DNA from: Candidatus Moraniibacteriota bacterium
GTDB taxonomy: Bacteria > Patescibacteriota > Minisyncoccia > Moranbacterales > GCA-2747515
Assembly (NCBI GenBank): GCA_942490825.1
Contig: CALNYG010000013.1
Location: 125,281-189,280, forward strand
DNA: 64,000 bases
Direction: 5' to 3'
The position numbers and the translations under genes are program-made. How positions within the stretch are numbered: the stretch's first letter is position 1; the number at the start of each line of letters is the position of its first letter. Below the pieces are notes generated by a model, which worked only from the letters and a program-made list of their open reading frames with translations, was not told where the DNA came from and made no database searches. Shown piece by piece: positions 4,790 to 39,759 of the stretch.

Positions 4790-4860
4790 TTTTTTTACCT
4801 TGTGAATAGGCTATATCAAGAAACAATTACGACTAGATTGCCGTAATTTAATAGCTTACA

Positions 4861-24680: not shown

Positions 24681-27600
24681 ATGAAAAAAATATTATCAAT
24701 CTTCGTGTTTTTTGTAATAATATTTTTAGGGACATACCATAACGTATTAGCCGCTAATCCAACAATTTCTGCAGTAGAGTTAGTTCCAACACCAACAAAT
24801 GATCCAGAATATACTTTTAATACAGATCAGGAGGGAACAATTACATATGGAGGGGATTGTAGTGCTACTACAGCAACTACAGTAGCAACAATAGGAGATA
24901 ACACAATTACTTTTAGTGGACTTTCAGATGCGACTTATTCAAGTTGTACTGTTATGGTGACTAACACTTCATTGGAAGATTCTAATATTTTAAGTGTTGA
25001 TACTTTTATATTGGAAACAGTTGCTCCAGTATTAACTCAAGTAACTCCAGTTTCAACTCCAACTACAGATACAACTCCAGATTATACTTTTGATACAGAC
25101 GAAGCGGGAACAATTACTTACGGAGGAAGTTGTGCAAGTATTTTGGATGTAAGTGTAGCGACAGCGGGAAATAAGACAATTACCTTTGACAAAACTATTT
25201 TAACAATCCAAGCTGTGGAACCTTTGATAGATGCTACATATTCAGATTGCACAATTAAAGTGACAGATGAAGCTGGAAACATTTCGGAACCTTTAACTGT
25301 AGATTCCTTTACAGTTGAAACAGGGGCTCCAACATTATCTCAATTAGCTCCAATTTCAACTCCAACTAGTGACACAACTCCAAATTATTCTTTTTATACT
25401 GATGAAGCGGGAACAATAAATTATTCAGGAGATTGTGCAAGCACTACTTTAAATGCAAACGCAGGAAATAATACGATTACTTTTGATACGCCTCTATTAG
25501 CGGAGTTACATTCAAATTGTTATATAACCGTAAATGATGGAGATTCTAATTTATCTAATAGTTTGCATGTAAGTGATTTTACCATAAAAGAAGTGCCTTC
25601 AATAAATAATGTAACAGGGGTAATTAATGGAGGAAATTCTATAACTATATCAGGAGCAGATTTTGGAGACAAGTCTGTAGCCGCACCATTGCGTTATGAT
25701 AATTTTGAGGGTGGTACAGCTGATTTAGCAATACCAAGTGATCAACCTGGGGGAGGATGGTCAACAGAATCACATAATGGTACAAACGCTCTTACTTGGT
25801 CAGATGAGACAGTTCGTTTTCCGGGGACATTATCAGCAAAACAATCCTATGATGATGAATTCGCTGGTGCGGGTATTTCTTTGGATAACAGGGATGATGT
25901 GGATACTATTCCCGAGACTAACGAAATGTATGTGTCGGGTTGGTTTTGGTTTGATACCTGGGATGGGCTTACTAACAATACCAAATTCATTAATATGGGA
26001 GTGCCCGATCCAATTCCAGCTGAACATAACGGATGGCAGACAAGACTGGACGGAAATCAAGAGACCGATAATGGACTTTTTTATGCATATATGAGTGATG
26101 ATTGTTCAATAGAGGGGACAAACGGGCAAAAACTTAAATATGAAGATTATCATTCTTTTGAAAATTATTTTCAACCTAATTCGAGTTGGCATAGAATTGA
26201 AACATATTTACGAATAGGATCTGATGGGTATCGAGATATTTATATTGACGGTGTTAAAATAGGAGAATTGATGGGAAATTTCACTTCTAACAATTGTGAA
26301 TTAGAATATGTTCTTATTGGCCATTATTTTCGTTTAGACTATGGTGTTGGGGATCCAACAGGTGTAAGATATTGGGACGAATTATATGTAGACACTACTC
26401 AAGCAAGAGTTGAAATTTGTGAGGATTCTATTTTTTCAAATTGTACTCACAAAGAAATTCAAATTCCTACTTCATGGAATGACATTACAGGAGAAATAGA
26501 GGTTACTTTAAATGAGGGATCATTGGATACATTGGGCGGAAAATATATTTATGTGATAGATTCAGACGGAACAGTTAGTAACAGTTATCTTTTAGATGCT
26601 GACACCACCCCAGATGCATTCACTTTCACCAACATCACAGGTGCAACAACCTCAACCCAATACACTTCAGATACAATTACCGTTGCAGGAATAGATGCAG
26701 GAGCAGACGCAACAATTGAAATCACAACTTGTGATTCAATAGGGACATGTGAATATGAACTTAATAACAGCGGATCATGGACAAGCACATCAGGAACAGT
26801 AAATTTAGGTGATATAGTAAAAGTCAGACAAACCTCATCTTCTAGTTATGGCACTCAAACTGATTTAACTTTAAGTATTGGAGGAGTGGAAGGTACTCAT
26901 TCTGTTACAACTTACATTGACACCACCCCAGATGCATTCACTTTCACCAACATCACAGGCGCAACAACCTCAACCGTCTACACTTCAAACTCAATTACTG
27001 TTGCAGGAATAGATGCAGGAGCAGACGCAACAATTGAAATCACAACTTGTGATTCAATAGGGACATGTGAATATGAACTTAATAACAGCGGATCATGGAC
27101 AAGCACATCAGGAACAGTAAATTTAGGTGATATAGTAAAAGTCAGACAAACCTCATCTTCTAGTTATGGCACTCAAACTGATTTAACTTTAAGTATTGGA
27201 GGAGTGGAAGGTACTTATTCTGTTACAACACTAGCAGATACAACCGCTCCAATAATATCTCAATTAGCTCCAATTTCAACTCCAACTAGTGATACAACTC
27301 CAAATTACATTTTTACTACAGATGAGGCAGGAACAATAAATTATTCCGGAGATTGTACAAGTACTACTTTTTTAAATGCAACTGTAGGAAATAATACAAT
27401 CACTTTCGATGCATTGTCAGTTGATGAACATTCAAATTGTCAAATTTCGGTAACTGATTCAGCAAGTAATATTTCCAATACAGTAGATGTTACTAATTTT
27501 ACAATTAAAAATCCACCTTCAATAAATGATGTGACAGGAGCTTTAATTAATGGAGGCTCTATAACTATATCTGGCTCAGATTTTAGTAATCATGATGACT

Positions 27601-30248
27601 TTGGTGGAGTTGATCCATATTTAAATTATGCGTTCGAAGATATCGAAGCGGGGGTGGTTGCTACAGCTCCAAAAGGCTGGTCTGGTGATGCAAGTTCAAC
27701 TACATTAAATAATCGTAGTGGTAGCACATATAGTGCATTTCATGAAAGAAATGTTGTTGCTGAATATACAGATATTTTTGGAGTAGTTACTACTGATAAT
27801 ACAAGAAATGGTCTTAGAATTGACATGGATGGAATTGCTCCAACTCATAGTTATTTAGCTTCATCTTGGGTACGTTTGTCTGATAATTTTTTAAATTTTA
27901 GCGATTATTCTGGTAATTACATGCGTTTTTTAGCTATGGGTCCTGATACTTTCTATAGTAGAGTAGGGACAGCAATTGATCTTCAAACAGTAACAGGAAA
28001 TGGAATCGATAGTGTTGATCATGGAGATCTAGTCGACTATATGCCTTATGGAGAGTGGCATAGAATGGATATGTGGGTAAGTATCCCAGACGCTACTACA
28101 GGATATGTCGATGAAGTTAAATGGTGGGTAGATGGACAGCTTATACGAGAAGTTAGGCAAACCGATGGACCAAATCAACCTGAATTTGGGGACGTTAGTG
28201 ATCTTAGTAGAATAGATTTTTTACCTTATGTTTCAAACCAAAACGATTCTTCATTTAGCATTCAAACAGACGATCATTTTATCGATTTTACTCAAGCACG
28301 AGTAGAGATTTCAGATAGTGCTACTTGGGATAATACCGCTCAAACACATAAAGAGCTTCAATTAGCTACTTCATGGAATGATATTACAGGAGAAATTGAA
28401 GTTACTTTAAATCAAGGCTCATTTGACACATTAGAAGGAAAATATCTTTATGTAATAGATTCAGATGGAAATGCTAGCGACGGATATTTATTAGAAACTT
28501 CAGACCCAACCCCAGACGCTTTCACTTTTACCGACATCACAGACGCAACAACTTCAACAGTCTACACTTCAAATTCAATCACCGTAGCAGGAATTAACAC
28601 AGATGCAACAATTTCAGTTACAAGTGGAGAATACAGCATTAACAGCGGAACCTGGACAAGTATATCAGGAACGGTAAGTTTAAATGATACGGTTGAAGTT
28701 CGACACACCTCATCAGCTAGTTACAGCACTGAAACTACCACAACTTTAGACATCGGAGGAGTGACTGATATTTACAATGTTACAACTGAAGCAGAACCAG
28801 CAGACACAACCCCAACCCCTTTCACTTTCACCGACATCACAGATGCCACAACCTCAACCGTCTACACTTCAAATTCAATTACCGTAGCAGGAATTAACAC
28901 AGACACAACAATTTCAGTTACAAATGGAGAATACAGTATCAACAGCGGAGCCTGGACAAGTACATCAGGAACAGTAAGTTTAAATGATACGGTTGAAGTT
29001 CGACATACTTCTTCAGCAAATTACAGCACTGAAACTACCACAACTTTAGACATCGGAGGAGTGACTGATATTTACAATGTTACGACTGAAGCGGAGCCAG
29101 TTGACACCACTCCCGACGCTTTCACTTTCACCGACGTAACAGATGCCACAACCTCAACTTTATACACTTCAAACGCAATTACAGTAACAGGAATTAACAC
29201 AGACGCAACAATCTCAGTTACAAGTGGAGAATACAGCATCAACAGCGGAACATGGACAAGCACATCAGGAACAGTAAGTTTAAATGACACAGTTGAAGTT
29301 CGACACACCTCATCAGCTAGTTACAGCACAGAAACTACCACGACTTTAGATATCGGAGGAGTTTCTGATATTTACAATGTTACGACTGAAGCAGAGCCAG
29401 CAGAACCAGTCGAGCCAGAAGTTCCAACTGATCCAATAGAGCCAATAGATCCATCAGAACCGTTAAATCCAGTAACTCCAATCGCACCAATTACACCAAA
29501 TGATCCAGAAGCTGATGAAGATGGATCAATAGGAAACACCATTTGGAATGACGAAAATAAAAATGGAAAACAAGATAATGACGAACCAGGAATTGAAAAT
29601 ATTAGAGTTAAATTAATTTTAGCAGGATCTGATAATGATTTTGACACAGATGATGAAATTTGGAGAACTGATACTAATCACAATGGACATTATCTTTTTG
29701 AAAATCTTCCAGAAGGAAAATATAGAGTGATAATTAAAGAAGAAGATCTAACAGATTGGACTCAAACCTATGATCCAAGTCATAGTGAAAATATGAATAA
29801 TCAGTTAACTTTAGATTTAGATGAAAATGATGAATATACTAAAGCTGATTTTGGGTATGTGAAAAAAAGTAATGATAATTTAGTGGAATATAATAACAGT
29901 TTATTAAATAATACTTACACAGAAACAACTATTGCTAATGATGATGTTGCAGTAAATTCAGATACAGATAATTTAGATTTAGTAAATTTAAACGATGTTA
30001 TCGAGAATAAAAATGTAGAGAAAAACAAAGTTATTGATGATGTTGTAGATAAGGTGGATGATAACAGAAAAGAAGAAAATGAGTTGTTTGCTGAGTATTC
30101 TGATTTTACCAGTAGTAAAGATGAGATAAGTACTGATAACAAAACAGAAAGTAGTGAAGTTATTAAATATGTAGTAGGATCTTTGATAGGCGCAGCTTCT
30201 GTACTTTTGTTATTTTGGTTTTTTAAGAAAGATGAAAATTTAAATTAA
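24681..30248 (+). CDS. Giant repetitive cell-surface protein (1855 aa) with an SdrD B-like/Cna B domain and a C-terminal transmembrane anchor
   Basis: Signal peptide, Thr/Ser-rich beta-domain repeats, a proline-rich linker (EPAEPVEPEVPTDPIEPIDP), an SdrD B-like segment (GNTIWNDENKNGKQDNDEPGIENIRVKL...GKYRV) and a C-terminal hydrophobic anchor. Confidence 0.8.
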   Translation: MKKILSIFVFFVIIFLGTYHNVLAANPTISAVELVPTPTNDPEYTFNTDQEGTITYGGDCSATTATTVATIGDNTITFSGLSDATYSSCTVMVTNTSLEDSNILSVDTFILETVAPVLTQVTPVSTPTTDTTPDYTFDTDEAGTITYGGSCASILDVSVATAGNKTITFDKTILTIQAVEPLIDATYSDCTIKVTDEAGNISEPLTVDSFTVETGAPTLSQLAPISTPTSDTTPNYSFYTDEAGTINYSGDCASTTLNANAGNNTITFDTPLLAELHSNCYITVNDGDSNLSNSLHVSDFTIKEVPSINNVTGVINGGNSITISGADFGDKSVAAPLRYDNFEGGTADLAIPSDQPGGGWSTESHNGTNALTWSDETVRFPGTLSAKQSYDDEFAGAGISLDNRDDVDTIPETNEMYVSGWFWFDTWDGLTNNTKFINMGVPDPIPAEHNGWQTRLDGNQETDNGLFYAYMSDDCSIEGTNGQKLKYEDYHSFENYFQPNSSWHRIETYLRIGSDGYRDIYIDGVKIGELMGNFTSNNCELEYVLIGHYFRLDYGVGDPTGVRYWDELYVDTTQARVEICEDSIFSNCTHKEIQIPTSWNDITGEIEVTLNEGSLDTLGGKYIYVIDSDGTVSNSYLLDADTTPDAFTFTNITGATTSTQYTSDTITVAGIDAGADATIEITTCDSIGTCEYELNNSGSWTSTSGTVNLGDIVKVRQTSSSSYGTQTDLTLSIGGVEGTHSVTTYIDTTPDAFTFTNITGATTSTVYTSNSITVAGIDAGADATIEITTCDSIGTCEYELNNSGSWTSTSGTVNLGDIVKVRQTSSSSYGTQTDLTLSIGGVEGTYSVTTLADTTAPIISQLAPISTPTSDTTPNYIFTTDEAGTINYSGDCTSTTFLNATVGNNTITFDALSVDEHSNCQISVTDSASNISNTVDVTNFTIKNPPSINDVTGALINGGSITISGSDFSNHDDFGGVDPYLNYAFEDIEAGVVATAPKGWSGDASSTTLNNRSGSTYSAFHERNVVAEYTDIFGVVTTDNTRNGLRIDMDGIAPTHSYLASSWVRLSDNFLNFSDYSGNYMRFLAMGPDTFYSRVGTAIDLQTVTGNGIDSVDHGDLVDYMPYGEWHRMDMWVSIPDATTGYVDEVKWWVDGQLIREVRQTDGPNQPEFGDVSDLSRIDFLPYVSNQNDSSFSIQTDDHFIDFTQARVEISDSATWDNTAQTHKELQLATSWNDITGEIEVTLNQGSFDTLEGKYLYVIDSDGNASDGYLLETSDPTPDAFTFTDITDATTSTVYTSNSITVAGINTDATISVTSGEYSINSGTWTSISGTVSLNDTVEVRHTSSASYSTETTTTLDIGGVTDIYNVTTEAEPADTTPTPFTFTDITDATTSTVYTSNSITVAGINTDTTISVTNGEYSINSGAWTSTSGTVSLNDTVEVRHTSSANYSTETTTTLDIGGVTDIYNVTTEAEPVDTTPDAFTFTDVTDATTSTLYTSNAITVTGINTDATISVTSGEYSINSGTWTSTSGTVSLNDTVEVRHTSSASYSTETTTTLDIGGVSDIYNVTTEAEPAEPVEPEVPTDPIEPIDPSEPLNPVTPIAPITPNDPEADEDGSIGNTIWNDENKNGKQDNDEPGIENIRVKLILAGSDNDFDTDDEIWRTDTNHNGHYLFENLPEGKYRVIIKEEDLTDWTQTYDPSHSENMNNQLTLDLDENDEYTKADFGYVKKSNDNLVEYNNSLLNNTYTETTIANDDVAVNSDTDNLDLVNLNDVIENKNVEKNKVIDDVVDKVDDNRKEENELFAEYSDFTSSKDEISTDNKTESSEVIKYVVGSLIGAASVLLLFWFFKKDENLN
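26601..27236 (+). repeat. Two tandem copies of a roughly 318-bp intragenic repeat, more than 97% identical
   Basis: DTTPDAFTFTNITGATTST...LSIGGVEGT repeated back to back. Confidence 0.7.
28501..29400 (+). repeat. Three tandem 300-bp intragenic repeats
   Basis: TTPDAFTFTDITDATTSTVYTSNSITVAGINTD...NVTTEAEP repeated three times. Confidence 0.7.
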
Positions 30249-30488: not shown

Positions 30489-33144
30489 ATGTCTATATTT
30501 TCAAAACTGTTTGGTTCAAATGAAAGTCAAGTTAAAAAATACAATCCGATCGTTGATCAGATAAATGATTTTGAGGATGCAATAAAAAAATTAACCGATG
30601 AAGAAATAAAAGAAAAAACTGCATCTTTTCAAAAGATAATTCAGAATGAAGAAAAAACATTAGATGAAATTTTGCCGGAAGCTTTTGCAGTTGCTCGGGA
30701 GGCAGCTCGAAGAACTTTAGGAGAGTGGGCTCATAACACTCAGTTGATTGGTGGGATGATTCTTCATGAAGGAAAAATTACCGAAATGAAAACAGGTGAA
30801 GGTAAAACTTTAACTTCTGTTCTTCCAATTTATCTTAATGCCTTAACTGGAAAAGGAGTTCACTTAGTTACGGTGAATGATTATTTAGCAAAACGTGATT
30901 GTAATTGGATGGGTGTTGTTTATGAAAAATTAGGTTTACAGGTAGCTTGTATTACACACGAAGGAGGATTTCTTTACGAAGCGAATACAGTTGATCGAGA
31001 TGAGGTTGATATTGAGATGGAAAACTTAAAAGCAGTTACAAAAAAAGAAGCTTATAATTCTGACATTACTTACGGAACAAATAATGAATTTGGTTTCGAT
31101 TATTTGCGTGATAATATGGCACAGTCTGAGGAAAGATTGTCGCAGCGAGAATTACATTTTGCGATCGTAGATGAAGTCGATTCAATTTTAATTGATGAGG
31201 CGAGAACTCCGTTAATTATTTCTGCACCAGACAATGAGTCAACTAAACTTTATGAAAAATTTGCACAAGTTGTTCCTAATTTGCAAATCGAAAAAGATTA
31301 TAACGTTGATGAAAAAACTCGAAATGTAACTTTGACTGACGAGGGAATTCAGAAAGTAGAAAATCTTTTAGGAGTGGGAAATATTTATGAAGAGGGGAAA
31401 GTTCAATATGTTCATCATTTGGAACAATCTTTGAAAGCACATGCTCTTTTTGTGAGGGATAAGGATTATATGGTAAAAGATGGTGAAGTTATTATTATCG
31501 ATGAGTTTACTGGTCGAGCGATGGAAGGGCGACGATATTCAGATGGTCTTCATCAGGCGATTGAAGCGAAAGAAAAAGTGGCGGTTCAGCGTGAATCAAA
31601 AACGTTGGCGACAATTACTTTTCAGAATTATTTTCGTATGTATGACAAGTTAGCGGGTATGACAGGAACAGCGGTAACCAGTGCAGAAGAGTTTCAAAAA
31701 GTTTATAAATTGGATGTTATCATTGTTCCGACTAATAGGGAGATGGCTAGAAAAGATTTAGCGGATGTTGTTTATAAGAATGAGAACGGAAAATTTAAAG
31801 CGATTGTTGAAAAAATTAAAGAATTGTATGAAAAAGGTCAACCTGTTTTAGTAGGCACAGTGGCGATTGAAAAGTCTGAGTTGTTGAGTAATATGTTGAA
31901 AAAAGCAAAAATTTCTCATAGCGTTCTTAATGCAAAATATCATGAGAAAGAAGCTCAGATTGTGGCTAAAGCTGGTTTTAAAGGTTCGGTAACAATTGCA
32001 ACAAATATGGCGGGACGTGGTACGGATATTAAATTGGGTGAGGGTGTGAAAGAAGTTGGTGGTCTTTATATTATTGGAACTGAACGTCATGATGCTCGAC
32101 GAATTGATAATCAGTTGCGAGGACGTTCCGGACGACAGGGTGATCCTGGGACAACTCAATTTTATATTTCTTTGGAGGATGAATTGATGCGACGTTTTGG
32201 TGGTGATAGATTGAAAGGTATTATGGAAAAAATTGGTTTTGACGAAGATCAGCCAATTGAAAATAAAATTATTTCTAAACAAATTGAAGGTGCTCAATCT
32301 AAAATTGAAGGATTTAATTTTGATGCTCGTAAACATGTTTTGGATTATGATGATGTTGTTAATAAGCAACGAGAAGTTATTTACGGTAGACGGAGAAATA
32401 TTTTGGAAAAATTAGATTCTAAAGAAGAAATTGTAAAAATGTTTGATGAGGAGGTTAATGAGATTGTGGATGCTTATACTAATTTAAGTAGACATGATTG
32501 GAATGAATCAGAAATTATTAAAGAAATTAAGGCGATCGCTCCTATTTCAGAAAATTTTGAAACAAAATTAAAAGATATTTTTGATGATGGTAATAAAGAT
32601 GATAAGGAAGTTATTGAAAGCACAAAGGATCTTTTGATTGAAGAATTGAAAGTGGCTCATACTAAAAAAGCAGAAGAAAATGGGGAAAATGCAATGCGGG
32701 CGATTGAGCGTTCTATTTTAATGCAAACTATTGATCAGCATTGGATGAATCATTTAGATGCGATTGATCATATGCGACAGGGAATTGGTTTGCGGGGTTA
32801 TGGTCAACAGGATCCTTTGATTGAATATAAAAGGGAGGCTTTTGGGATGTTTAATCAGCTTTTGGGAAATATTAGAAATACGGTTTTGCATACTATTTTT
32901 AGGGCGAGTGTTGTTAGTGATCAGAATCAGAGTGCAGTGACTGAATTGGCAAAAAATATGAATTTTTCTGGGGCGAATAGTAATCCTGAGCAATTTGCTC
33001 AGGCGGCTGGAGAGGAAAATAAGCAGATGATGTCTAAAATGCCAAAAATTGAAAAAGCCTGTTCATTCTGAAAAGTTGGTTGGACGAAATGATCCTTGTT
33101 CTTGCGGGAGTGGGAAGAAGTTTAAGAAATGTTGTGGACGGTAG
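30489..33144 (+). CDS. secA: Preprotein translocase ATPase SecA; the C-terminal zinc-binding tail is in the +1 frame
   Basis: DEAD-like motor and the preprotein-binding and helical scaffold domains. The ORF stops at 33071, but the +1 frame continues with [23 protein letters not shown] (the canonical SecA Zn finger). The frames join by a 1-nt change in the A5 run at 33052-33056. Confidence 0.85.
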
Positions 33145-33167
33145 AGATTCAAGTTTGCATGATATTT

Positions 33168-33290
33168 TGCAGGAACGGGTTTTACAACTCGTTCCACATG
33201 TTTATCTTTAGTTTATAGATAAAATTTAAAATATAATTTTTTTACAATTCAGAAACGTTTCGGAGCCAGTTGTAAAACTGGTTCCTGCAG
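33168..33290. repeat. Paired-palindrome unit U1 (H1 GGAACGGGTT-ttac-AACtCGTTCC at 33172-33195, H2 GGAgCCAGTT-gtaa-AACTGGtTCC at 33262-33285)
   Basis: Two 24-nt hairpin palindromes 66 nt apart with outer TGCAGGAAC...GTTCCTGCA inversion. 98% identical to U3 at 38472-38594. Confidence 0.6.
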
Positions 33291-33408
33291 AAGTTGTGGA
33301 AAATAGATTTGTGTAATACTGATAGTGCTATTGGTATGCAATAAATTTTTAAGTTTTTTATAGGGAAGTCATGGAATTTTATTCTGTGGCTTTTTTGTTT
33401 TGGTGGGG

Positions 33409-33437
33409 TTGACAGGTTTTAGTTTATATGATATGAT
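33409..33437 (+). promoter_or_regulatory. Consensus sigma70-like promoter (TTGACA, 17-nt spacer, TATGAT), now separated from its gene by the IS30 insertion
   Basis: Perfect -35 hexamer, 17-nt spacer and a 5/6 -10. Identical to the copy at 38713-38741. Confidence 0.55.
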
Positions 33438-33454
33438 TGGGTTTCAAATGAGAA

Positions 33455-34527
33455 CCTACCCGCAATAGTCAATCCGACCACCCTATTTTTCATCAACAAC
33501 GCGTAAGCGTTGTTTTTCTTTTTCTAAAGATTCTGTTGGAGATAAATAATCTAAACATTTCATATATCTTTCATTACATTTATCTTGAATAGCTTTAATA
33601 TATTCTTCATCATATTTTGAAATGTCACTTCCTTTAGGAATATATTTTCTAATATATTTATTTACATTTTCCACGCTTCCTTTTTCCCATGAATGATATG
33701 GATGACAAAAGTAAATTGGGATTTTTAAAATTGTTTCTAACGTTTTATGCATTCTAAATAATATATCATTATCTAAAGTTAGAGTTTTCATTTCTGGAAA
33801 TTCTTTTTTGATTTTTAATAATTTTTCGTGAACATTATCTATTGTTACGTCTAATATTTGTTCAATGAATACATATCTAGTTTTTCTATCAATTAACACT
33901 AATAGATAGCCCGTTCCACTTTTTCCTGAAACAATGAAGTCTCCTTCAACATCTCCAATTCTCTCTCTATTTTCCGCTATTTCAGGGCGTTTATCAATGA
34001 ATTTCCTATCTTTTAGCTTCTTTACTTTTATTCTCTTTTTTTCCATATTTTAATCTCTTTATTTTCTTTTTGATTAGCTTTCCATAATCGCTATCTAAAA
34101 AATCATAAATTGTATTTTTTGAAACGTAAATCAAATTTTTTTCTTGATATTTTAATCTTCCTGAGATTGCTTCTGGCGATTGATTATCGCATAATTTAGC
34201 TTCTATAAATTTTCTCAATTTAGAATTACCAATTATCTTAGATCCTCTGAAACTTGCATAATATCTTTTTACATATGATTTATGATTTGCTTTTTCTGGA
34301 TCATATTTGTTTTTTACTGAATTTTTTTTGATTTCATCAATGATGCTTGAATGTGATCTTTTCAGTATTTTTCCTATTTTTCTTTTTGAATATTTTTTAT
34401 CTAAATAATATTTAATTTCTCTTCTTTCTGCTTTACTTATATGTTTAAATGTTTTTTTTCATTAAAAAATTATTAAAATTTATCTTTTTATTTTAACAGA
34501 GTGGTCGGATTCAAAAAGGAATGTAGG
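33455..34527 (-). mobile_element. IS30-family insertion sequence (1073 bp) with a GAA target-site duplication
   Basis: Imperfect 26-bp terminal inverted repeats (CCTAC...AATCCGACCA at both ends). Flanked by GAA at 33452-33454 and 34528-34530. The uninterrupted target is visible in the paralogous repeat at 38745-38760 (caaatgaGAAatttacgg). Confidence 0.75.
33483..34440 (-). pseudogene. IS30-family transposase, split by a frameshift into a helix-turn-helix part (34440-34006) and a DDE part (34046-33483)
   Basis: The N-terminal part (KAERREIKYYLDKKYSKRKIGKIL...) and the C-terminal catalytic part (...HSWEKGSVENVNKYIRKYIPKGSDIS...) overlap by 41 nt in different frames. The ATG is followed by an A8 run. 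Confidence 0.7.
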
Positions 34528-34657
34528 GAAATTTACGGTTAGTTTGTAAATTGAACATTTGATTAGTTCTTTGTTAATTTTCGAGTAGGGAAATAGTTTC
34601 TTTATTCGATTTTTTTTGAAACCTTTACGGCGAGGAAATCGCCAAAGGAATGTAGTT

Positions 34658-35155
34658 ATGATAAAAAATATTTCTCTTTTCTGTCTTTTCTCTTTTCTTT
34701 CTACTCTTTTATCAAACTTCGCTATAGCAGACGCTGGGTACGACGATTACCCATCCTCTTTATTTTTAATAGAAGGAGACACAGGAAGCGAGTTTGAACC
34801 TCTTCGAATAAAGGGAGGAACTTTCGATGAGCGTCTTCTAGTAGGAAAAGTAGAGAAGTTTGAAGTAGAAAGTGGGGCGTTCATAATAAAGTGTTCTTTT
34901 AGTGTTATGGATAACGCTACTGGAGATACTCTAAGTTGTCGCCCGAATAATGGTTCACCTTCTTTTTTCCGTCTTACTAAAAAAGTAGGTAAAAAGGGCA
35001 TGAGAATCGTAGAGGAAATAGACATTATTTCAAGTCCTGCTATGTATTATGAAAATAGTAAGACGGCGGGTACAGGATCTACCGTAGAAGATAATGTATA
35101 TATTTCTCCTGATAGCACAGTATTCGGGCCCACAGGAATCAATATCGGGAACTAA
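34658..35155 (+). CDS. Small secreted protein, cassette gene 1
   Basis: Signal peptide MIKNISLFCLFSFLSTLLSNFAIA/DA. The leader is conserved with the gene at 38878. Confidence 0.55.
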   Translation: MIKNISLFCLFSFLSTLLSNFAIADAGYDDYPSSLFLIEGDTGSEFEPLRIKGGTFDERLLVGKVEKFEVESGAFIIKCSFSVMDNATGDTLSCRPNNGSPSFFRLTKKVGKKGMRIVEEIDIISSPAMYYENSKTAGTGSTVEDNVYISPDSTVFGPTGINIGN

Positions 35156-35168
35156 CAGAGTTCCCACA

Positions 35169-35235
35169 GAAGGCTTTAGCAATTCGATTTATTTCGAACG
35201 TATAATGTACACGCTAAGGCCTTCTTTCTTTTTAA
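35169..35235 (+). terminator. Cassette terminator hairpin (GAAGGCTTTAGC, 32-nt loop, GCTAAGGCCTTC, then a T-rich tail)
   Basis: 12-bp stem with one mismatch, immediately after the stop. Paralogous copy at 39197-39262. Confidence 0.55.
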
Positions 35236-35303
35236 GAGCTTAAAATATATTTTCTAGATTTTAAAAAGAATTTATATTTACACAATCAAAACTTTTTACA
35301 AGA

Positions 35304-35415
35304 ACAATTTTTACAACCCGTTCCAAACGTTTCTATTTTATACACATCATAAATTAAAAATAAATAAATTTTCATAATTCAAAAACATTTCAGAACCAGT
35401 TGTAAAACTAATTCC
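35304..35415. repeat. Paired-palindrome unit U2 (degenerate, b-type spacer)
   Basis: TTTTTACAACCCGTTCC ... CAGAACCAGTTGTAAAACTAATTCC. The spacer matches U4. Confidence 0.45.
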
Positions 35416-35497
35416 TACGGTTTGATTATATTATCTAAAAATATCAAGTACTTCTATTTTACTTAAATTATAAAATTAAAATAAATCTATAGAGCAG

Positions 35498-35554
35498 AAT
35501 GATCCTTGTTTTTGCGAGAGTAGGGAGAAGTTTAAGAATAATTGTAGTAAATAG
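35498..35554 (+). other. Degenerate duplicate of the last 57 nt of secA (zinc-finger tail: NDPCFCESREKFKNNCSK*)
   Basis: aatgatccttgtttttgcgagagtagggagaagtttaagaataattgtagtaaatag, compared with the secA 3' end at 33095-33144 (about 45 of 57 identical). Confidence 0.55.
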
Positions 35555-35621
35555 ATTTAAAAATGATCTCGTGTTAAAATAAATATAATAATAAAATAAA
35601 TATTAAAAATAAAAAAGAAAT

Positions 35622-36995
35622 ATGAAAAAAAGTATTATAGTTGCTATTGCTATAATTGTATTACTCGCAACCCTAGGTTTTTTTGTAATGAAAAGTATCC
35701 AAAATAACAACAAGGTTTCAAAAAGCAAAACAAATACAACTTCCGTAACAAATACCGCTAATGTATCTCAAGGTACAGCTTCTAATCAAAAAGTAACTTC
35801 TTCAACTTCAACTACAAATACAAATTCCACTTCAGTTAAAACTAATTCTGAAGGTGAAAATATCGATGTTGAATGCAATCAAATTTATAACGATTTGTTC
35901 AAAGAAGAAAAGAAAGATTTTACAGAATGTGGTGTGTTTGCCAAAGATATATCCTGTGATGGTGAGAGTGCACCAAAAGAAGAAAAACAAAATAATTTAG
36001 TGATTATCTTCGATTCTTCTGGATCAATGGCTGGTCAAATCGGTGGAAAAGCTAAAATTGACATAGCAAAAGAAGCAGTCTGGAAGTTTTTAGATAGCAT
36101 GAAAGATTCTAAAACTAAAGTAAGCGTCGTTGTTTATGGACATAAGGGAAGTAACAATTCTTCTTCTAAACAACTTTCTTGTAGCAGTATCGATGAAGCT
36201 TATTATTTTGGAGATTTAGATGTTGCAGTTGCTAAAAATAAAATTAGTGAATTTAAACCAACTGGATGGACTCCAATTGCGAGTTCTTTAGATAAAGCTA
36301 AAGATATTTTAGTTAAAAATACTAAAGATGGTGATGTTAATTCAATATTACTAATTAGTGATGGTGAAGAAACTTGTGATGGTAATCCTATATCTAAAGC
36401 TAAAGAGATTCGAGATTCAACGGGGATAACTACTAGTGTAATTGCTTTTGATGTTACGGGAAATGTGCAAGCTCAATTGAAAAGTATATCAGAAAATGGA
36501 GGGGGAACTTTTCATGCGGCTAATAGTTTAGAGGAAATGTTTGCGGCGTTGGATGCTGAGAATGATAAGTTTTGGGAAAAATATGAGTGTGAGAGTGAGC
36601 AGTGGAGTGAATGGTTAGATAAAAGTTTAGATACAGTATTTGTTGGAAATAGTTGTGCTCAAAACTTGTTTTGGGAAAAGAACGGTATGATCGATATGGG
36701 GATTGAAAGCTTGGGTTATAATGATGTTGCAGATAGTTGTAAACAAAAAATAATTAAAGATTATCGGGAGAATAGGTATAAGGCTATTCGAGAGCAGTTG
36801 ATTAAAAATTATATTGCTAATTTTATTAGATCAAATAAAATTATAGATGATAGTGAAATATGGACTGATGATATTGATTATGAAGGTGATATGATGAGAG
36901 ACTTGAAAAGTAATTGGAATAATCAGTGGGATAATGATATTGATTGGAATGCTATTCAGCAACAGATCAAAACTGAAATAGTTAACAATAGATAA
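35622..36995 (+). CDS. Secreted von Willebrand factor A (VWA) domain protein
   Basis: N-terminal anchor or signal, a Ser/Thr-rich linker, and a DSSGSM MIDAS motif with the downstream T and D residues. Confidence 0.7.
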   Translation: MKKSIIVAIAIIVLLATLGFFVMKSIQNNNKVSKSKTNTTSVTNTANVSQGTASNQKVTSSTSTTNTNSTSVKTNSEGENIDVECNQIYNDLFKEEKKDFTECGVFAKDISCDGESAPKEEKQNNLVIIFDSSGSMAGQIGGKAKIDIAKEAVWKFLDSMKDSKTKVSVVVYGHKGSNNSSSKQLSCSSIDEAYYFGDLDVAVAKNKISEFKPTGWTPIASSLDKAKDILVKNTKDGDVNSILLISDGEETCDGNPISKAKEIRDSTGITTSVIAFDVTGNVQAQLKSISENGGGTFHAANSLEEMFAALDAENDKFWEKYECESEQWSEWLDKSLDTVFVGNSCAQNLFWEKNGMIDMGIESLGYNDVADSCKQKIIKDYRENRYKAIREQLIKNYIANFIRSNKIIDDSEIWTDDIDYEGDMMRDLKSNWNNQWDNDIDWNAIQQQIKTEIVNNR

Positions 36996-37102
36996 TATTA
37001 ACAAATTCTACATTATAAATTGTAGACCTAAAAGTAAATTTAATTTATAATATAGATTGTAGGTCGATAAAGTAAATTTAATTAAATTAATAAAATAAAA
37101 AT

Positions 37103-37639
37103 ATGTCAAAGTTTAAAGTGGGTATGTCTTTAACTGCATTTTTAGCAGCTGTAGTTTTGTCAGGTTGTGGTGTTAATGTTGATGATGGGGCTGATTCAGT
37201 TAAAGTTAATACTGATGGTATTGAGGTAAAATCTGATGGTTCTACTGTTGAGGTTAAAGATGGTATGAACAGTGTTAATGTTAATTCTGATGGTAGTACT
37301 GTGGATGTTAGTGGCGGTAGTGTAAAACTTGAAACTAATGATGCTAAAGTTAATGTTAACGGTGGTAATGTAGATGTTGATTCAAAGGATACTACTGCTA
37401 CTAAAACAACTACTACAACTACAACGACAAATCCAAGTTCAAGCTCAAGTACAAATACAAGTTCAAGTACAATCAGTCCTTCAAGTAATGCTAATGTTAA
37501 TATTGATGCTGAGGATGCTAAGGTTAAGACTGATGGAAGTAATGTCAATATTGATACTGATGATGCTAAGATTCAGACTGATGGAGATGGTAATGTTAAG
37601 GTTCAGGCTCCAGGGGTTAATTTGAATGTTGGTTACTAG
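37103..37639 (+). CDS. Repetitive lipoprotein
   Basis: LSGC lipobox. Repeated DG(S/T)xVxV motifs and a poly-Thr tract. Confidence 0.55.
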   Translation: MSKFKVGMSLTAFLAAVVLSGCGVNVDDGADSVKVNTDGIEVKSDGSTVEVKDGMNSVNVNSDGSTVDVSGGSVKLETNDAKVNVNGGNVDVDSKDTTATKTTTTTTTTNPSSSSSTNTSSSTISPSSNANVNIDAEDAKVKTDGSNVNIDTDDAKIQTDGDGNVKVQAPGVNLNVGY

Positions 37640-37657
37640 GTTTTAGGGGTTTATTTT

Positions 37658-37692
37658 GAAAAAGCCATGGGATTTTCTCATGGCTTTTTTGT
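37658..37692 (+). terminator. Hairpin terminator (AAAGCCATG...CATGGCTTT plus T7)
   Basis: 9-bp stem plus a T-run, 19 nt after the stop at 37639. Confidence 0.5.
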
Positions 37693-37705
37693 TTGGTTTG
37701 TGGGG

Positions 37706-37734
37706 TTGACAGGTTTTGGATTATGTGATATTAT
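37706..37734 (+). promoter_or_regulatory. Third copy of the cassette promoter (TTGACA, 17-nt spacer, TATTAT)
   Basis: GTGGGGTTGACAGGTTTTgga is conserved with 33401 and 38705. Lies upstream of the gene at 37905. Confidence 0.5.
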
Positions 37735-37904
37735 TGGGTTTCAAATGAGTTATTGTAATCAATTATTTATTTGAAAATGTTCTTTTAAATCACTCTCTAT
37801 ATTTTTAAAGTTTACTTCACTGATTATGTTTTTTATTTTTTAGTAGAAGATATGATTGGTGAAGTATAACTTTTCTTTTCTTGGCTCGGGAGGGCTAGAT
37901 TATT

Positions 37905-38288
37905 ATGACAAATTACATTTTTTTAATTTTTCTTTTTTTTACTGCTCTTTCTCCTGTTGATTCTTTCGCAGCCGATCCTGGTTGTGGAAGCGTTATTACA
38001 AATTCCTATTGTGAAGACGGGAGATGTATTTCAGGAAGTTGTTTGCAGTTACAATTGCAAACAAATGTAGCAGGTGGAGTAGAAAAATCGTCTAAAGTTG
38101 TAAAAATTTCCAGCCATTTGCTAGCTAAAATGTATGAAATTGGCAGGAAAAGAGATGAAGAAAAAGCGAAAGAAGATCTTGCTCGTAAAGAGCAAAAAGA
38201 GGCAGATCGCAAAGCCTGCGATGGTGGTGATAGGCGAGCATGTATAAGAAATGCTTTGCTTATACAAATAGGAAATAGTATGAAGTGA
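37905..38288 (+). CDS. Small secreted protein
   Basis: Signal peptide (FAADPGCG), Cys-rich N-terminus, Lys/Glu-rich C-terminus. Confidence 0.5.
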   Translation: MTNYIFLIFLFFTALSPVDSFAADPGCGSVITNSYCEDGRCISGSCLQLQLQTNVAGGVEKSSKVVKISSHLLAKMYEIGRKRDEEKAKEDLARKEQKEADRKACDGGDRRACIRNALLIQIGNSMK

Positions 38289-38471
38289 TCTCGACCCAGC
38301 GTTAGGAATATTTAACGCTGGGTTCATTTTTTTAAAATTACAATTTTTACATAAACAAAAATATCCAACTATCTTCAGAGATAGTTTTTTTATTACCAAA
38401 AATATTTTGCAGAAATAATTTTAAAATATAAAACTTTATTTTTACTTTTCATTAGAGATAAAAAATATTTT

Positions 38472-38594
38472 TGCAGGAACGGGTTTTACAACCCGTTCCA
38501 CATGTTTATCTTTAGTTTATAGATAAAATTTAAAATATAATTTTTCTGTATTTTAGAAACGTTTCGGAACCAGTTGTAAAACTGGTTCCTGCAG
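38472..38594. repeat. Paired-palindrome unit U3 (perfect H1 at 38476-38499 and perfect H2 at 38566-38589)
   Basis: GGAACGGGTTttacAACCCGTTCC and GGAACCAGTTgtaaAACTGGTTCC, both perfect 10-bp stems. The cores GTTTTACAAC and GTTGTAAAAC are reverse complements. Confidence 0.6.
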
Positions 38595-38712
38595 AAGTTG
38601 TGGAAAATAGATTTGTGTAATACTGATAGTGCTATTGGTATGCAATAAATTTTTAAGTTTTTTATAGGGAAGTCATGGAATTTTATTCTGTGGCTTTTTT
38701 GTTTTGGTGGGG

Positions 38713-38741
38713 TTGACAGGTTTTAGTTTATATGATATGAT
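38713..38741 (+). promoter_or_regulatory. Cassette promoter (TTGACA, 17-nt spacer, TATGAT)
   Basis: Identical to 33409-33437. Followed by the conserved leader and the cassette gene at 38878. Confidence 0.55.
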
Positions 38742-38877
38742 TGGGTTTCAAATGAGAAATTTACGGTTAGTTTGTAAATTGAACATTTGGGTAGTTCTTT
38801 GTTAATTTTTGGGTAAGAAACTGTTTTTTACTCGATTTATTTTTAATTCTACGGCAAAAGCCAAGGGAATTTCTGTT

Positions 38878-39189
38878 ATGAAAAAAAATATTTCACTTTT
38901 CATTTTCTTATTGTTTTTTTCTTATTTCTCCGCTCCTCCCGCTATGGCGGATATCGAAGACGGACTGACTTACAGTCAGCTCGTGAAAGCAGGAATAATC
39001 ACTAACAAAAAAATTGATAGTAATATTTACAAAATTGATAGTGGAAAAAAAACGGATACTGCTAAAGATGCTACGGCGGAAGTGGTTAATGAAGTAAAAA
39101 TTCAAAATAGTAGTTCTACTACTGGAAATTCAGGGGTCTGCATAGGAGCAGGCCCATGCGGAAATAATAGAATGATCATGATCAGGTGA
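38878..39189 (+). CDS. Small secreted protein, cassette gene 2
   Basis: Signal peptide MKKNISLFIFLLFFSYFSAPPAMA/DI. The leader and terminator are conserved with cassette gene 1. Confidence 0.5.
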   Translation: MKKNISLFIFLLFFSYFSAPPAMADIEDGLTYSQLVKAGIITNKKIDSNIYKIDSGKKTDTAKDATAEVVNEVKIQNSSSTTGNSGVCIGAGPCGNNRMIMIR

Positions 39190-39196
39190 TCCCACA

Positions 39197-39262
39197 GAAG
39201 GCTTTAGCAATTCGATTTATTTCGAATGTACAATGTACACGCTAAGGTCTTCTTTCTTTTTA
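39197..39262 (+). terminator. Cassette terminator hairpin, copy 2
   Basis: GAAGGCTTTAGC...GCTAAGGtCTTC plus a T-rich tail. Confidence 0.5.
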
Positions 39263-39327
39263 AGAACTCGAAAGAGATTTTCTAGATTTTAAAAAGAATT
39301 TATATTTACACAAATAAAAATCTTTAT

Positions 39328-39447
39328 AGGAATAGATTTTATAACCCGTTTGAAGCCTTTCTTTTTTATATATATCATAAATTAAAAATAAATAAATTTT
39401 CATAATTCAAAAACATTTCAGAAGCAGTTGTAAAACTAGTTCCTGCT
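39328..39447. repeat. Paired-palindrome unit U4 (degenerate, b-type)
   Basis: ttttATAACCCGTTtgaa ... CAGAAGCAGTTGTAAAACTAGTTCC. Confidence 0.4.
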
Positions 39448-39531
39448 TTACTTGATTTTTTGTAATCTCTCAAATCTTTACACTTATTATTTTCAAAAGC
39501 ATAAAAGCAGGGGTTGGGTTTTACAATTTTC

Positions 39532-39650
39532 GCTAGGAACGGGTTTTACAACCCGTTCCGGATGTTCATCTCTAATTCACAAATAAATTTCAGAATATAT
39601 TTTTTCACAAATCAGAAACTTCACGGAGCCAGTTATAAAACTAGTTCCTG
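39532..39650. repeat. Paired-palindrome unit U5 (perfect H1 at 39536-39559, degenerate H2 at 39626-39648)
   Basis: GGAACGGGTTttacAACCCGTTCC ... GGAGCCAGTTataaAACTAGTTCC. Confidence 0.5.
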
Positions 39651-39759
39651 TAATATTTACAAATTATCGATTGCATTTTTAAAAATATTAGACTATCCTT
39701 ATAGATAGTCTTTTTAAATTATTTATAAAAAGACAAAAATTAACAATTTATACAAAAAC

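Follow-up and report, generated by a model that had tools for sequence, protein, structure and literature searches.

Paired-hairpin units in the secA-dxs gap of a Candidatus Moraniibacteriota contig are probably REPIN-like REP doublets

The window analyzed here is a 64,000-nucleotide stretch of DNA from a Candidatus Moraniibacteriota bacterium. Its secA-dxs gap carries five units of about 120 bp, each with two 24-nt hairpins that have mirror-image loops. What kind of element are these units, and what acts on them? The original prediction took them for sites of a tyrosine or serine recombinase. They are very probably REP doublets, REPIN-like non-autonomous elements (some of them decayed) of the kind moved by REP-associated tyrosine transposases (RAYTs). 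This reading is based on a unit beside a RAYT remnant in one relative (L017), units flanking a RAYT gene in another (L030), compensatory changes in the stems, and the lack of target-site duplications. The element type is a known one, met here in a bacterium of the candidate phyla radiation (CPR/Patescibacteria).

Structure of the units

Each unit consists of two inverted repetitive extragenic palindromes (REPs) of 24 nt, H1 and H2, around a spacer of about 66 nt. The positions of the units are as follows.

33138-39660, no strand: variable island from secA to dxs, about 6.5 kb, bracketed by units a1 and c and absent from the relative L037
33168-33289, + strand: unit a1, a REP doublet beginning 23 nt past the secA stop; H1 at 33172-33195 (GGAACGGGTT-TTAC-AACTCGTTCC) and H2 at 33262-33285 (GGAGCCAGTT-GTAA-AACTGGTTCC), each with 9/10 WC pairs
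35297-35419, + strand: unit b1, a decayed doublet; H1 at 35301-35324 (6/10 WC) and H2 at 35392-35415 (7/10 WC)
38472-38593, + strand: unit a2, the best-preserved doublet, in a TGCA...TGCA frame; H1 at 38476-38499 and H2 at 38566-38589, both with perfect 10-bp stems
39325-39447, + strand: unit b2, a decayed doublet; H1 at 39329-39352 (5/10 WC) and H2 at 39420-39443 (7/10 WC)
39532-39652, + strand: unit c; H1 at 39536-39559 (perfect) and H2 at 39625-39648 (8/10 WC)
60212-60280, - strand: partial unit relic, one hairpin plus conserved flank (profile E 2.5e-4)

The five predicted units are thus located at 33168, 35297, 38472, 39325 and 39532. All are on the + strand with a constant internal order, H1 then H2, and the loop of H2 (GTAA) is the reverse complement of that of H1 (TTAC). 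The distance between the hairpins is 65-67 nt, rather than the predicted 60-66 nt. The hairpins had also been described as perfect palindromes throughout, but only three of the ten are perfect (H1 at 38476, H1 at 39536 and H2 at 38566). The count of WC pairs is 9/10 in both hairpins of a1 and 8/10 in H2 of c. It falls to 5-7/10 in the four b-type hairpins, a clear sign of decay in the b units. The enclosing TGCA...TGCA frame is exact in a1 and a2, but not in the other three units.

The number of hairpin-pair matches expected by chance in the window is zero. A search of the 64 kb with a profile of the unit finds the five units and the partial relic, and no others. The relic is located inside a split porA gene, in its second ORF, and the relic hairpin reads GGAACGGATT-GTAA-AATCCATTCT on the + strand, with the conserved flank GAAACGTTTC.

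Folded as single-stranded DNA, a2 gives two local 10-bp hairpins (-26.2 kcal/mol, z = -6.9). A duplex between H1 and H2 would have 16/20 pairs, as compared to 9-10/10 inside each hairpin. The stems of the two REPs in a doublet differ, and as a result no single long hairpin is formed.

These features bear on the recombinase proposal, in which the units would be sites of the attC or Xer dif/cer kind, or the inverted sites of an invertible promoter switch of 66 bp, used by a tyrosine or serine recombinase acting in trans. Each unit does have two inverted near-palindromic sites around a spacer. However, it folds as two separate hairpins and not as one bulged attC-like hairpin, and neither an RYYYAAC nor a GTTRRRY core is present in any unit. 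The overlap in Xer and tyrosine-recombinase sites is 6-8 bp, for which the 4-nt centre is too short, and for inversion the spacer, at 66 bp, is very short. This reading is already disfavoured.

Segmental duplication and the IS30-family insertion

The five copies are not independent of each other. Their number is due to the duplication of a block of about 980 bp, containing in order unit a, a promoter, a small secreted-protein gene and unit b. This one segmental duplication accounts for a1/a2 and b1/b2 (4/5 units), and the five copies represent three independent types, all clustered within 6.5 kb.

33165-33454, + strand: duplicated block D1, copy 1, 98% identical to 38469-38758
38469-38758, + strand: duplicated block D1, copy 2
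35162-35416, + strand: duplicated block D2, copy 1, 89% identical to 39190-39444
39190-39444, + strand: duplicated block D2, copy 2
33455-34527, - strand: IS30-family insertion (NF033563, 159 bits), interrupting cassette copy 1

D1 carries unit a, a terminator-like stem and a TTGACA-17-TATGAT promoter-like site, and its left edge coincides with that of unit a. D2 carries the 3' flank of the cassette gene and unit b, with which it shares its right edge. The duplicated cassette extends to the outer edge of unit a on one side and of unit b on the other. The expected proximity of the a subtype to promoters holds to the extent that the promoter-like site is found about 120 nt past a1 and a2, but both cases come from one duplicated block. 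The terminators expected next to the b subtype did not materialize, as a terminator scan calls none adjoining the b units.

The array had been described as free of recombinase genes. A frameshifted IS30-family transposase (33483-34218, as ORFs 34006-34218 and 33483-34046) was overlooked there, although the window indeed contains no integrase or recombinase, and this DDE transposase is the only match. The insertion has terminal repeats CCTAC...AATCCGACCAC and a flanking 2-bp duplication.

With an IS30-family element within the array, the units might be MITEs of such a DDE insertion sequence, moved via 28-bp terminal inverted repeats, and such repeats are present (TGCAGGAAC..GTTTTACAAC..GTTCC and its complement). 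However, the hairpins bear no relation to the terminal repeats of IS30 (CCTACCCGCAATAGTCAATCCGACCAC), and in the units each terminal repeat forms a hairpin of its own, maintained by compensatory change. Moreover, no direct repeats or target-site duplications are found at the ends of the window units or the L017 unit, as expected under Y1/HUH transposition, whereas the IS30 copy has one. The IS30 copy is outside the hairpin system, and a MITE origin of the units is extremely improbable.

Covariation in the stems

A covariation analysis was run on 27 oriented hairpins. In these, 93.5% of the stem cells are paired, as compared to 85% in shuffles (0/500 reach 93.5%), and four of the eight stem pairs have changes on both sides. 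Pair 12:25, for example, is GC in 11 hairpins, UA in 8, CG in 3 and UG in 3. Pairing in the stems is maintained via compensatory changes, and positions 6-7 vary freely with complementarity kept.

This pattern argues against the other proposal made for the palindromes, that they are operators of a dimeric transcription factor for the small secreted-protein genes, secA and dxs. Their 10-4-10 arrangement is operator-like, strong promoter-like sites follow a1 and a2 at about 120 nt, and dxs follows c at about 110 nt. However, variable positions 6-7 that stay complementary fit a folded hairpin better than base-specific dimer contacts. A third copy of the promoter module (37688-37754) has no unit, and three relatives (L014, L018 and L037) keep secA and dxs without any unit. 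In addition, L030 repeats the whole unit of about 97 bp, including the spacer, after many unrelated genes and around a RAYT gene. Operators are therefore a very unlikely explanation.

Units and RAYT genes in relatives

The content of the secA-dxs gap is different in every relative examined. In the close relative L037, the entire 6.5-kb island is missing and a single gene of 237 aa is in its place; unit c ends 8 nt short of the resumed homology, upstream of dxs. The whole island, not single units, is the sole presence/absence difference seen in this comparison. The units were correctly predicted to form the edges of variable DNA, both for the island and for the duplicated cassette. Although these edges and the variable gap would suit recombination sites, sites and genes are not in a 1:1 relationship (no site accompanies the three genes between b1 and a2), and the same kind of unit is found around a RAYT gene in L030 and beside a RAYT remnant in L017. 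Recombination sites are highly improbable, slightly more so than operators.

The Dxs protein of L017 is 82% identical to that of the window; the best named relatives of the latter are from Moranbacteria and Parcubacteria. L017 has one unit in the same gap, at about 4826-4948, with compensatory changes in its stems (GGAACTGG...CCAGTTCC). It is located 35 nt upstream of a 52-aa ORF, the first 46 residues of which have 70-83% identity to many intact proteins of about 166 aa. The only NCBIfam match of this ORF is the REP-associated tyrosine transposase NF047646 (E 0.0064), and judged by these matches it is an N-terminal RAYT remnant. The presence of this remnant beside the unit suggests that the secA-dxs gap was probably a former home of a RAYT gene in the lineage. 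The window would then have retained RAYT-flanking doublets (a1 and c, at the island edges), with the RAYT gene itself absent from the 64 kb.

The intact RAYTs score above the curated NF047646 cutoff of 80 bits, with 89 bits for P0224 of L030 and 88.7 bits for a reconstructed protein of L027, and reach Pfam Y1_Tnp only below threshold. Several intact relatives carry the JGI label 'REP element-mobilizing transposase RayT'. By sequence, P0224 finds its best PDB match in E. coli TnpA(REP) (4ER8); the match is weak (E 0.08) but spans the HUH and catalytic-Tyr regions.

L030 is a Paceibacteria MAG (GC 31%), in which doublets flank the intact P0224 gene on both sides. The doublet (GGGAACTGGTT-TGA-AACCAGTTTCC, 46 nt, GGAAACGGGTT-ACA-AACCCGCTCCC) has the design of the window units and nearly identical stems. 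The unit occurs in eight copies over 20 kb (79-94% identical, one inverted), all between called genes and with unrelated flanks, and the repeated entity is the entire unit of about 97 bp. When a profile was made from the units of the window and L017 alone, it recovered all L030 copies (E 3e-5 to 3e-3) with no other hits; the best E in the shuffle control was 0.02. Hairpins with 10-bp stems and 3-nt loops also adjoin the RAYT genes of L027, L028, L029, L034 and L035. No additional members turned up in exact-pattern scans of the public collections of genomes, metagenomes and viruses.

The idea of an enzyme acting in trans is supported by the RAYTs of the relatives, there being none in the 64 kb, but the associated enzyme is of the HUH/Y1 type, related to IS200/IS605 TnpA, rather than a site-specific recombinase of the tyrosine or serine class. 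Tested against the definitions of attC, dif/cer and DDE-MITE elements, the units match none of them.

Proposed mechanism

The most likely role of the hairpins is that of DNA substrates, acted on by an enzyme whose gene lies elsewhere. By analogy to E. coli TnpA(REP) and IS200/IS605 TnpA, each REP would fold into a hairpin on transiently single-stranded DNA. A RAYT (an HUH/Y1 enzyme) would bind this hairpin and cut beside the conserved 5' TGCR foot, and the doublet would then be moved or copied without target-site duplication. This enzymology is inferred, as would be any present activity of the elements in the genome of the window.

Classical REPINs number tens to hundreds, in dispersed positions. 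The copy number here is low and clustered, five in 6.5 kb and one relic in the other 57 kb, which is a point against the REPIN reading. The doublet architecture fits the published REPIN definition of inverted REP pairs with a spacer and RAYTs nearby (PMC3116915). The tag is a further point against it, as the REPs of the RAYT systems studied so far have GTAG or CGTC (PMC3733652) and those here have TGCR. The same holds for the absence of a RAYT from the 64 kb, for the unlike stems of the two REPs in a doublet, for the empty scans of public collections, and for the fact that the presence/absence difference seen concerns the island as a whole.

The units could also be REPIN-derived but now kept by the host, as 3' mRNA stabilisers or attenuators or as nucleoid-protein sites, with the transposase no longer acting. 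E. coli REPs provide documented cases of such exaptation. In favour of it, three hairpins remain perfect although the window has no RAYT and that of L017 is truncated; H1 of a1 begins 27 nt past the secA stop, and in a simple scan the H1 hairpins of a1 and a2 come out as weakly terminator-like. On the other hand, the b units are decaying, and close relatives manage without a unit at the same genes. Host exaptation is unlikely.

Comparison with known systems

Like integron attC sites and CALIN arrays, the units are imperfect inverted repeats in the 60-140 bp range beside small gene cassettes, and an enzyme able to act in trans may likewise recognise them in the form of folded single strands of DNA. 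They differ in having no R''/R' core sequences, single bulged hairpin, one-site-per-cassette rule or IntI, and in that the cassettes have their own promoters.

The subterminal hairpins of IS200/IS605 elements and PATEs are recognised by a Y1/HUH enzyme on single-stranded DNA, as may be the case for the units, and show neither terminal inverted-repeat cuts nor target-site duplication. In comparison, the window unit contains no transposase gene, its hairpins form an inverted doublet where IS200/IS605 elements have separate left and right ends, and the associated protein is a RAYT by NF047646 (Y1_Tnp being below threshold).

Another close system is REP/BIME with TnpA(REP) of E. coli (PDB 4ER8; PMC3479197; Ton-Hoang et al. 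2012). It shares the extragenic imperfect palindromes in alternating orientation, two REP subtypes per cluster, and the P0224 alignment across the HUH and Tyr motifs. The match is weak, however, and the family here is known from sequence alone; the spacer here is longer (46-67 nt) and conserved, with no GTAG tetranucleotide. The E. coli subtypes are the Y and Z types.

Among the closest systems is that of the REPINs and RAYTs of Pseudomonas fluorescens SBW25 (Bertels & Rainey 2011, PMC3116915; RAYT groups, PMC5581495). The units here differ in their small CPR/Patescibacteria host genome, very few and clustered copies, different stems in each doublet (giving two local hairpins instead of one long one), a TGCR rather than GTAG foot, and the lack of a RAYT in the 64 kb. 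As in SBW25, two inverted REP palindromes with a spacer make up a non-autonomous unit of about 100-120 bp, singlets and decayed copies are present, the unit and not the single REP is the repeated entity (here in L030), and homologous units directly flank a RAYT gene (here in L030 and L017).

Structure of the hairpin units

The hairpin pairs between secA and dxs are best explained as a REPIN-like family of REP doublets (two inverted REPs and a spacer) in a CPR bacterium, with the REP-associated tyrosine transposase (RAYT, an HUH/Y1 enzyme) identified in relatives. The original prediction of five paired-hairpin units with loops TTAC and GTAA is borne out: matches to both 24-mers with up to three mismatches are confined to 33.1–39.7 kb of the window, and the number expected from shuffled sequences is zero. 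The positions of the units, as read from the sequence, are:

33168-33289, forward strand, unit a1
35297-35419, forward strand, unit b1
38472-38593, forward strand, unit a2
39325-39447, forward strand, unit b2
39532-39652, forward strand, unit c

In all five units, H1 (loop TTAC) is followed by a spacer of 65–67 nt and H2 (loop GTAA), giving an inverted doublet. The ten 24-nt hairpins are located between ORFs, and they are repeated, extragenic, imperfect palindromes in the 20–40 bp range of REPs. They had been described as perfect palindromes, which is true of only three. Unit a1 has one imperfect pair in each of its hairpins, H2 of unit c has two, and 5–7 of 10 Watson-Crick pairs are left in the b-type hairpins. 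The 5′ foot is conserved as TGCA or TGCG (TGCR). Neither direct repeats nor a target-site duplication is found at the ends of any unit in the window or in L017, a relative with a unit in the same gap.

In the 64 kb, the five copies and one partial relic (60212-60280) are the only matches to a profile HMM of the unit. Five copies are located within 6.5 kb, and the relic aside there are none in the other ~57 kb.

The relic is found in porA (pyruvate synthase alpha subunit, 59494-60803), which is divided into two ORFs with a break at 59946/59949. The second part of porA has an additional segment that contains the relic. This segment may be an insertion of the element into the gene, or porA may be a pseudogene.

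Folding of the units

As single-stranded DNA, unit a2 is predicted to form two local hairpins with stems of 10 bp (−26.2 kcal/mol, z −6.9). Among 27 oriented hairpins, 93.5% of the stem cells pair, as compared to 85% in shuffles (none of 500 shuffles reaches 93.5%), and changes on both sides are seen in four of the eight stem pairs.

The minimum-free-energy fold of the unit has two local hairpins, rather than the one long hairpin of a REPIN. An H1:H2 duplex has 16 of 20 pairs, as compared to 9–10 of 10 inside each hairpin, and this is alike in the window, in L017 and in L030, a Paceibacteria metagenome-assembled genome. The stems differ between the REPs of a doublet (CGGG/CCAG in the window, CTGG/CCAG in L017, CTGG/CGGG in L030), and therefore each REP folds on itself.

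The units at the edges of a variable island

Dxs has its best named matches in Candidatus Moranbacteria and Parcubacteria, and the GC content is 31–32%. The content of the secA-dxs gap is different in every relative examined, and this gap is a strain-variable hotspot.

Cargo of the secA-dxs gap in four relatives (coordinates of each locus)
L014, 9239-9892: one 217-aa gene
L018, 2366-4479: DNA methylase and NgoFVII-like restriction enzyme
L017, 4449-5369: small genes
L037, 2048-2761: one 237-aa gene

The close relative L037 lacks the island, and its DNA is 92% identical to the window in secA and 89% in dxs. The homology ends at 33137 and restarts at 39661, and therefore the whole 6.5-kb stretch between them is an island. 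It is bracketed by unit a1, which begins 23 nt 3′ of the secA stop, and by unit c, whose end is 8 nt short of the point where the homology restarts.

The secA gene (30489-33144) has one surplus A in a homopolymer run at 33052-33056 (AAAAA, compared to AAAA in L037 and L017). The reading frame is thereby shifted ~90 nt ahead of the true stop, and the annotated ORF, which stops at 33071, lacks the SEC-C zinc-finger motif. The surplus A reflects either an error of assembly or a frameshift that is real or programmed. Directly 5′ of secA, an ORF at 24681-30248 encodes a secreted protein of 1855 aa that contains several long internal repeats (TPDAFTFT...SGxWTS modules).

Related units and RAYT in other genomes

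In L017 (Dxs 82% identical), there is one unit in the secA-dxs gap, and the stem differences are compensatory. A 52-aa ORF begins 35 nt 3′ of this unit. Its sole NCBIfam match is the REP-associated tyrosine transposase model NF047646 (E 0.0064), and a Pfam search gives no match. Its first 46 residues have 70–83% identity to many intact proteins of ~166 aa. Those relatives carry an HUH motif (NHIHLI) and a tyrosine region (Y-x-x-x-NPV, as Y-I-x-x-NPV), and both motifs can be aligned, though weakly, to those of E. coli TnpA(REP) (4ER8). Against a curated cutoff of 80 bits, NF047646 scores 89 for P0224, the intact protein of L030, and 88.7 for a protein reconstructed from another locus (L027). 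By these scores and the 4ER8 alignment, the protein associated with the units has the HUH motif and catalytic Tyr of a RAYT. Other loci of the P0224 family have hairpins with 10-bp stems adjoining the gene.

Pieces of a classical IS200/IS605 Y1 transposase (the C-terminal 83 aa) and an HTH_Tnp_4 fragment are also present 5′ of secA in L017 (402-1255), and are distinct from the RAYT remnant.

In L030 (31% GC), P0224 has doublets on both sides, with the same design and with stems nearly identical to those of the window (GGGAACTGGTT-TGA-AACCAGTTTCC, 46 nt, GGAAACGGGTT-ACA-AACCCGCTCCC). Self-comparison of this locus reveals eight copies of ~97 bp in 20 kb, 79–94% identical and all with different flanks. 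They are all located between called genes, and one is inverted. The ~97-bp doublet is therefore the repeated entity, as expected of a REPIN. Units of the window, L017 and L030 can be aligned over their full length (alignment A1), and a profile built from the window and L017 units only recovers all the L030 copies and nothing else. An exact-pattern scan with GGAACNNGTTTTACAACNNGTTCC, too strict for the 3-nt-loop variant of L030, gives 13 unrelated single matches in genome_contigs (terminators or coding sequence, in other phyla), 8 unrelated matches in metagenome_contigs and 0 in viral_contigs.

A possible degenerate REP singlet (GGGGTTGGGTTTTACAATTTTCGC) is located immediately 5′ of unit c in the window (39508-39531), similar to an extra single hairpin just 5′ of the RAYT gene in L030.

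No RAYT is found in the 64-kb window, where tblastn with RAYT fragments and intact RAYTs gives only noise (best E 0.07). An intact RAYT with REPs on both sides is seen instead in L030, and L017 has a RAYT remnant 35 nt from its unit. The general idea of the original prediction, hairpin DNA sites for a trans-acting enzyme at the edges of variable DNA, is supported. The RAYT association in L017 and L030, the repeated units, their homology, the covariation and the absence of a target-site duplication together agree with how RAYT-associated REP doublets (REPINs) are defined in the literature (PMC3116915; PMC5581495).

It is highly unlikely that the units are operators, a role that would leave the covarying stems, the repeats of whole units in L030 and the RAYT association unexplained. 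Some copies of the REP doublets may have been exapted for a role at the RNA or DNA level.

Comparison with other repeated or mobile elements

The units had been compared to attC, dif or cer sites, and this reading fails on core sites, arm geometry and the site-per-gene pattern. Integron attC sites have RYYYAAC (R″) and GTTRRRY (R′) core sites at their ends. No 7-mer in any unit fits either one, and each unit has two hairpins rather than a single bulged one. In an integron, a site follows every promoterless cassette, and IntI and attI are close by. Here three consecutive genes are without a site, the cassettes carry promoter-like sites (TTGACA-17-TATGAT), and no integrase is found in the window. 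A Xer dif/cer site has two arms of ~11 bp around a 6–8-bp center and is usually present once per replicon, whereas here 10-bp arms surround a 4-nt center and as many as ten sites occur within 6.5 kb.

A DDE-type MITE has terminal inverted repeats like those of a parent IS and a target-site duplication. This reading, including a MITE derived from IS30, is rejected: the hairpins bear no relation to the ends of the IS30 element, and the units have no flanking direct repeats. A CRISPR repeat is ruled out by the lack of an array with equal spacers. An invertible promoter was considered and rejected as well. None of the hairpins is followed by a T-run, in agreement with the earlier statement that they are not intrinsic terminators; a simple scan picks out H1 in units a1 and a2, and this only because of a weak tail, ACATGTTTAT. 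No Rfam family is found at the gathering threshold in the whole window, and ARAGORN finds no tRNA.

Duplication of a block bounded by the units

Repeat analysis of the island finds three pairs of matching stretches:

33165-33454 and 38469-38758, 98% identity
34528-34702 and 38756-38922, 79% identity
35162-35416 and 39190-39444, 89% identity

These indicate that a single block of ~980 bp has been copied, and the unit copies are therefore not independent. The block contains, in order, unit a, a terminator-like stem, a promoter-like site (TTGACA-17-TATGAT), a gene for a small signal-peptide protein, its 3′ flank and unit b. Its left and right ends coincide exactly with the outer edges of units a and b, respectively. 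The two cassette genes have the signal peptide in common, and their mature proteins are unrelated.

Copy 1 was later interrupted by an IS30-family element of 1073 bp (33455-34527), overlooked in the original prediction. This element is inserted after the promoter and before the start of the first cassette gene. It encodes a frameshifted transposase (NF033563, 159 bits) and is bounded by terminal repeats of its own (CCTAC...AATCCGACCAC), with a 2-bp duplication.

A conserved module of the terminator-like stem, TTGACA-17-TATGAT/TATTAT with an upstream TG, and then TGGGTTTCAAATGAG occurs three times (33391-33457, 37688-37754 and 38695-38761). Each copy is located 5′ of a small signal-peptide protein gene (34658-35155, 37905-38288 and 38878-39189, respectively). 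Pfam gives no match for these three genes, nor does NCBIfam for the two cassette genes. Units of subtype a had been placed next to promoters. The block with unit a does have a promoter-like site, but the association rests on one block because the a copies belong to one duplication, and the module at 37688-37754 is without a unit. Subtype b had been placed next to terminators, and the scan calls none beside the b units.

The last ~50 nt of secA (SEC-C motif and stop) recur in degenerate form just 3′ of unit b1 (35498-35557), with 85% identity to 33088-33135 and 79% to L037. The location of this second copy just after b1 suggests that the first cassette came in together with a replacement secA 3′ end.

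Possible mechanism and history

By analogy with TnpA(REP) and IS200/IS605 TnpA, the RAYT would recognize the hairpin that each REP forms in single-stranded DNA, cut beside the conserved TGCR foot, and then move or copy the doublet. In the simplest history, a RAYT gene would once have resided in the secA-dxs gap, with doublets on either side as in L030; L017 retains a RAYT remnant there. In the lineage of the window, RAYT would then have been lost or replaced and the flanking doublets retained, and the doublet-bounded block would have been duplicated in a later step.

A further proposal is that two REP doublets jointly form the ends of a RAYT-movable composite, consisting of unit a, promoter, small secreted-protein gene and unit b. 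We consider this improbable, and retain it because the edges of the duplication match the unit edges exactly. The similar flanks of the two copies (98% and 89%), with a common signal peptide and unrelated mature proteins, and the bracketing of the whole island by units also fit. Duplicated genes bounded by REP pairs, which the composite predicts, are not found in L030, where only the ~97-bp units repeat. If true, secreted-protein genes in the streamlined genomes of CPR bacteria would be copied and shuffled as REPIN-bounded cassettes.

Comparison with known REPIN-RAYT systems

The REP doublets described here are not a new kind of recombination system. To our knowledge, studies of REPIN-RAYT systems are almost confined to Proteobacteria, where they are regarded as long-lived, vertically inherited intragenomic replicators. 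Patescibacteria have genomes of ~1 Mb with very little repeated DNA, and our literature searches found no paper on REPINs in this group. The locus provides a clear REP-doublet family in this group (Moranbacteria and Paceibacteria), for which relatives reveal the RAYT. With a RAYT remnant in L017 and no RAYT in the window, it is also a compact case for the fate of REPINs after RAYT loss. The units mark a recombination-prone hotspot between secA and dxs.

The REP design is a variant one: the foot is TGCR, and each doublet has two types of stem. At the hairpin foot, the REP superfamilies studied, and textbook REPINs, have a tag of GTAG or CGTC (PMC3733652), whereas the window units have TGCR in its place. 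This tag is a trait of the superfamilies studied and not of the REP concept itself. Compared to textbook REPINs, the window units are also very few and are clustered. The BIMEs of E. coli contain Y and Z types of REP, and the two stem types in each doublet here are similar to this arrangement.
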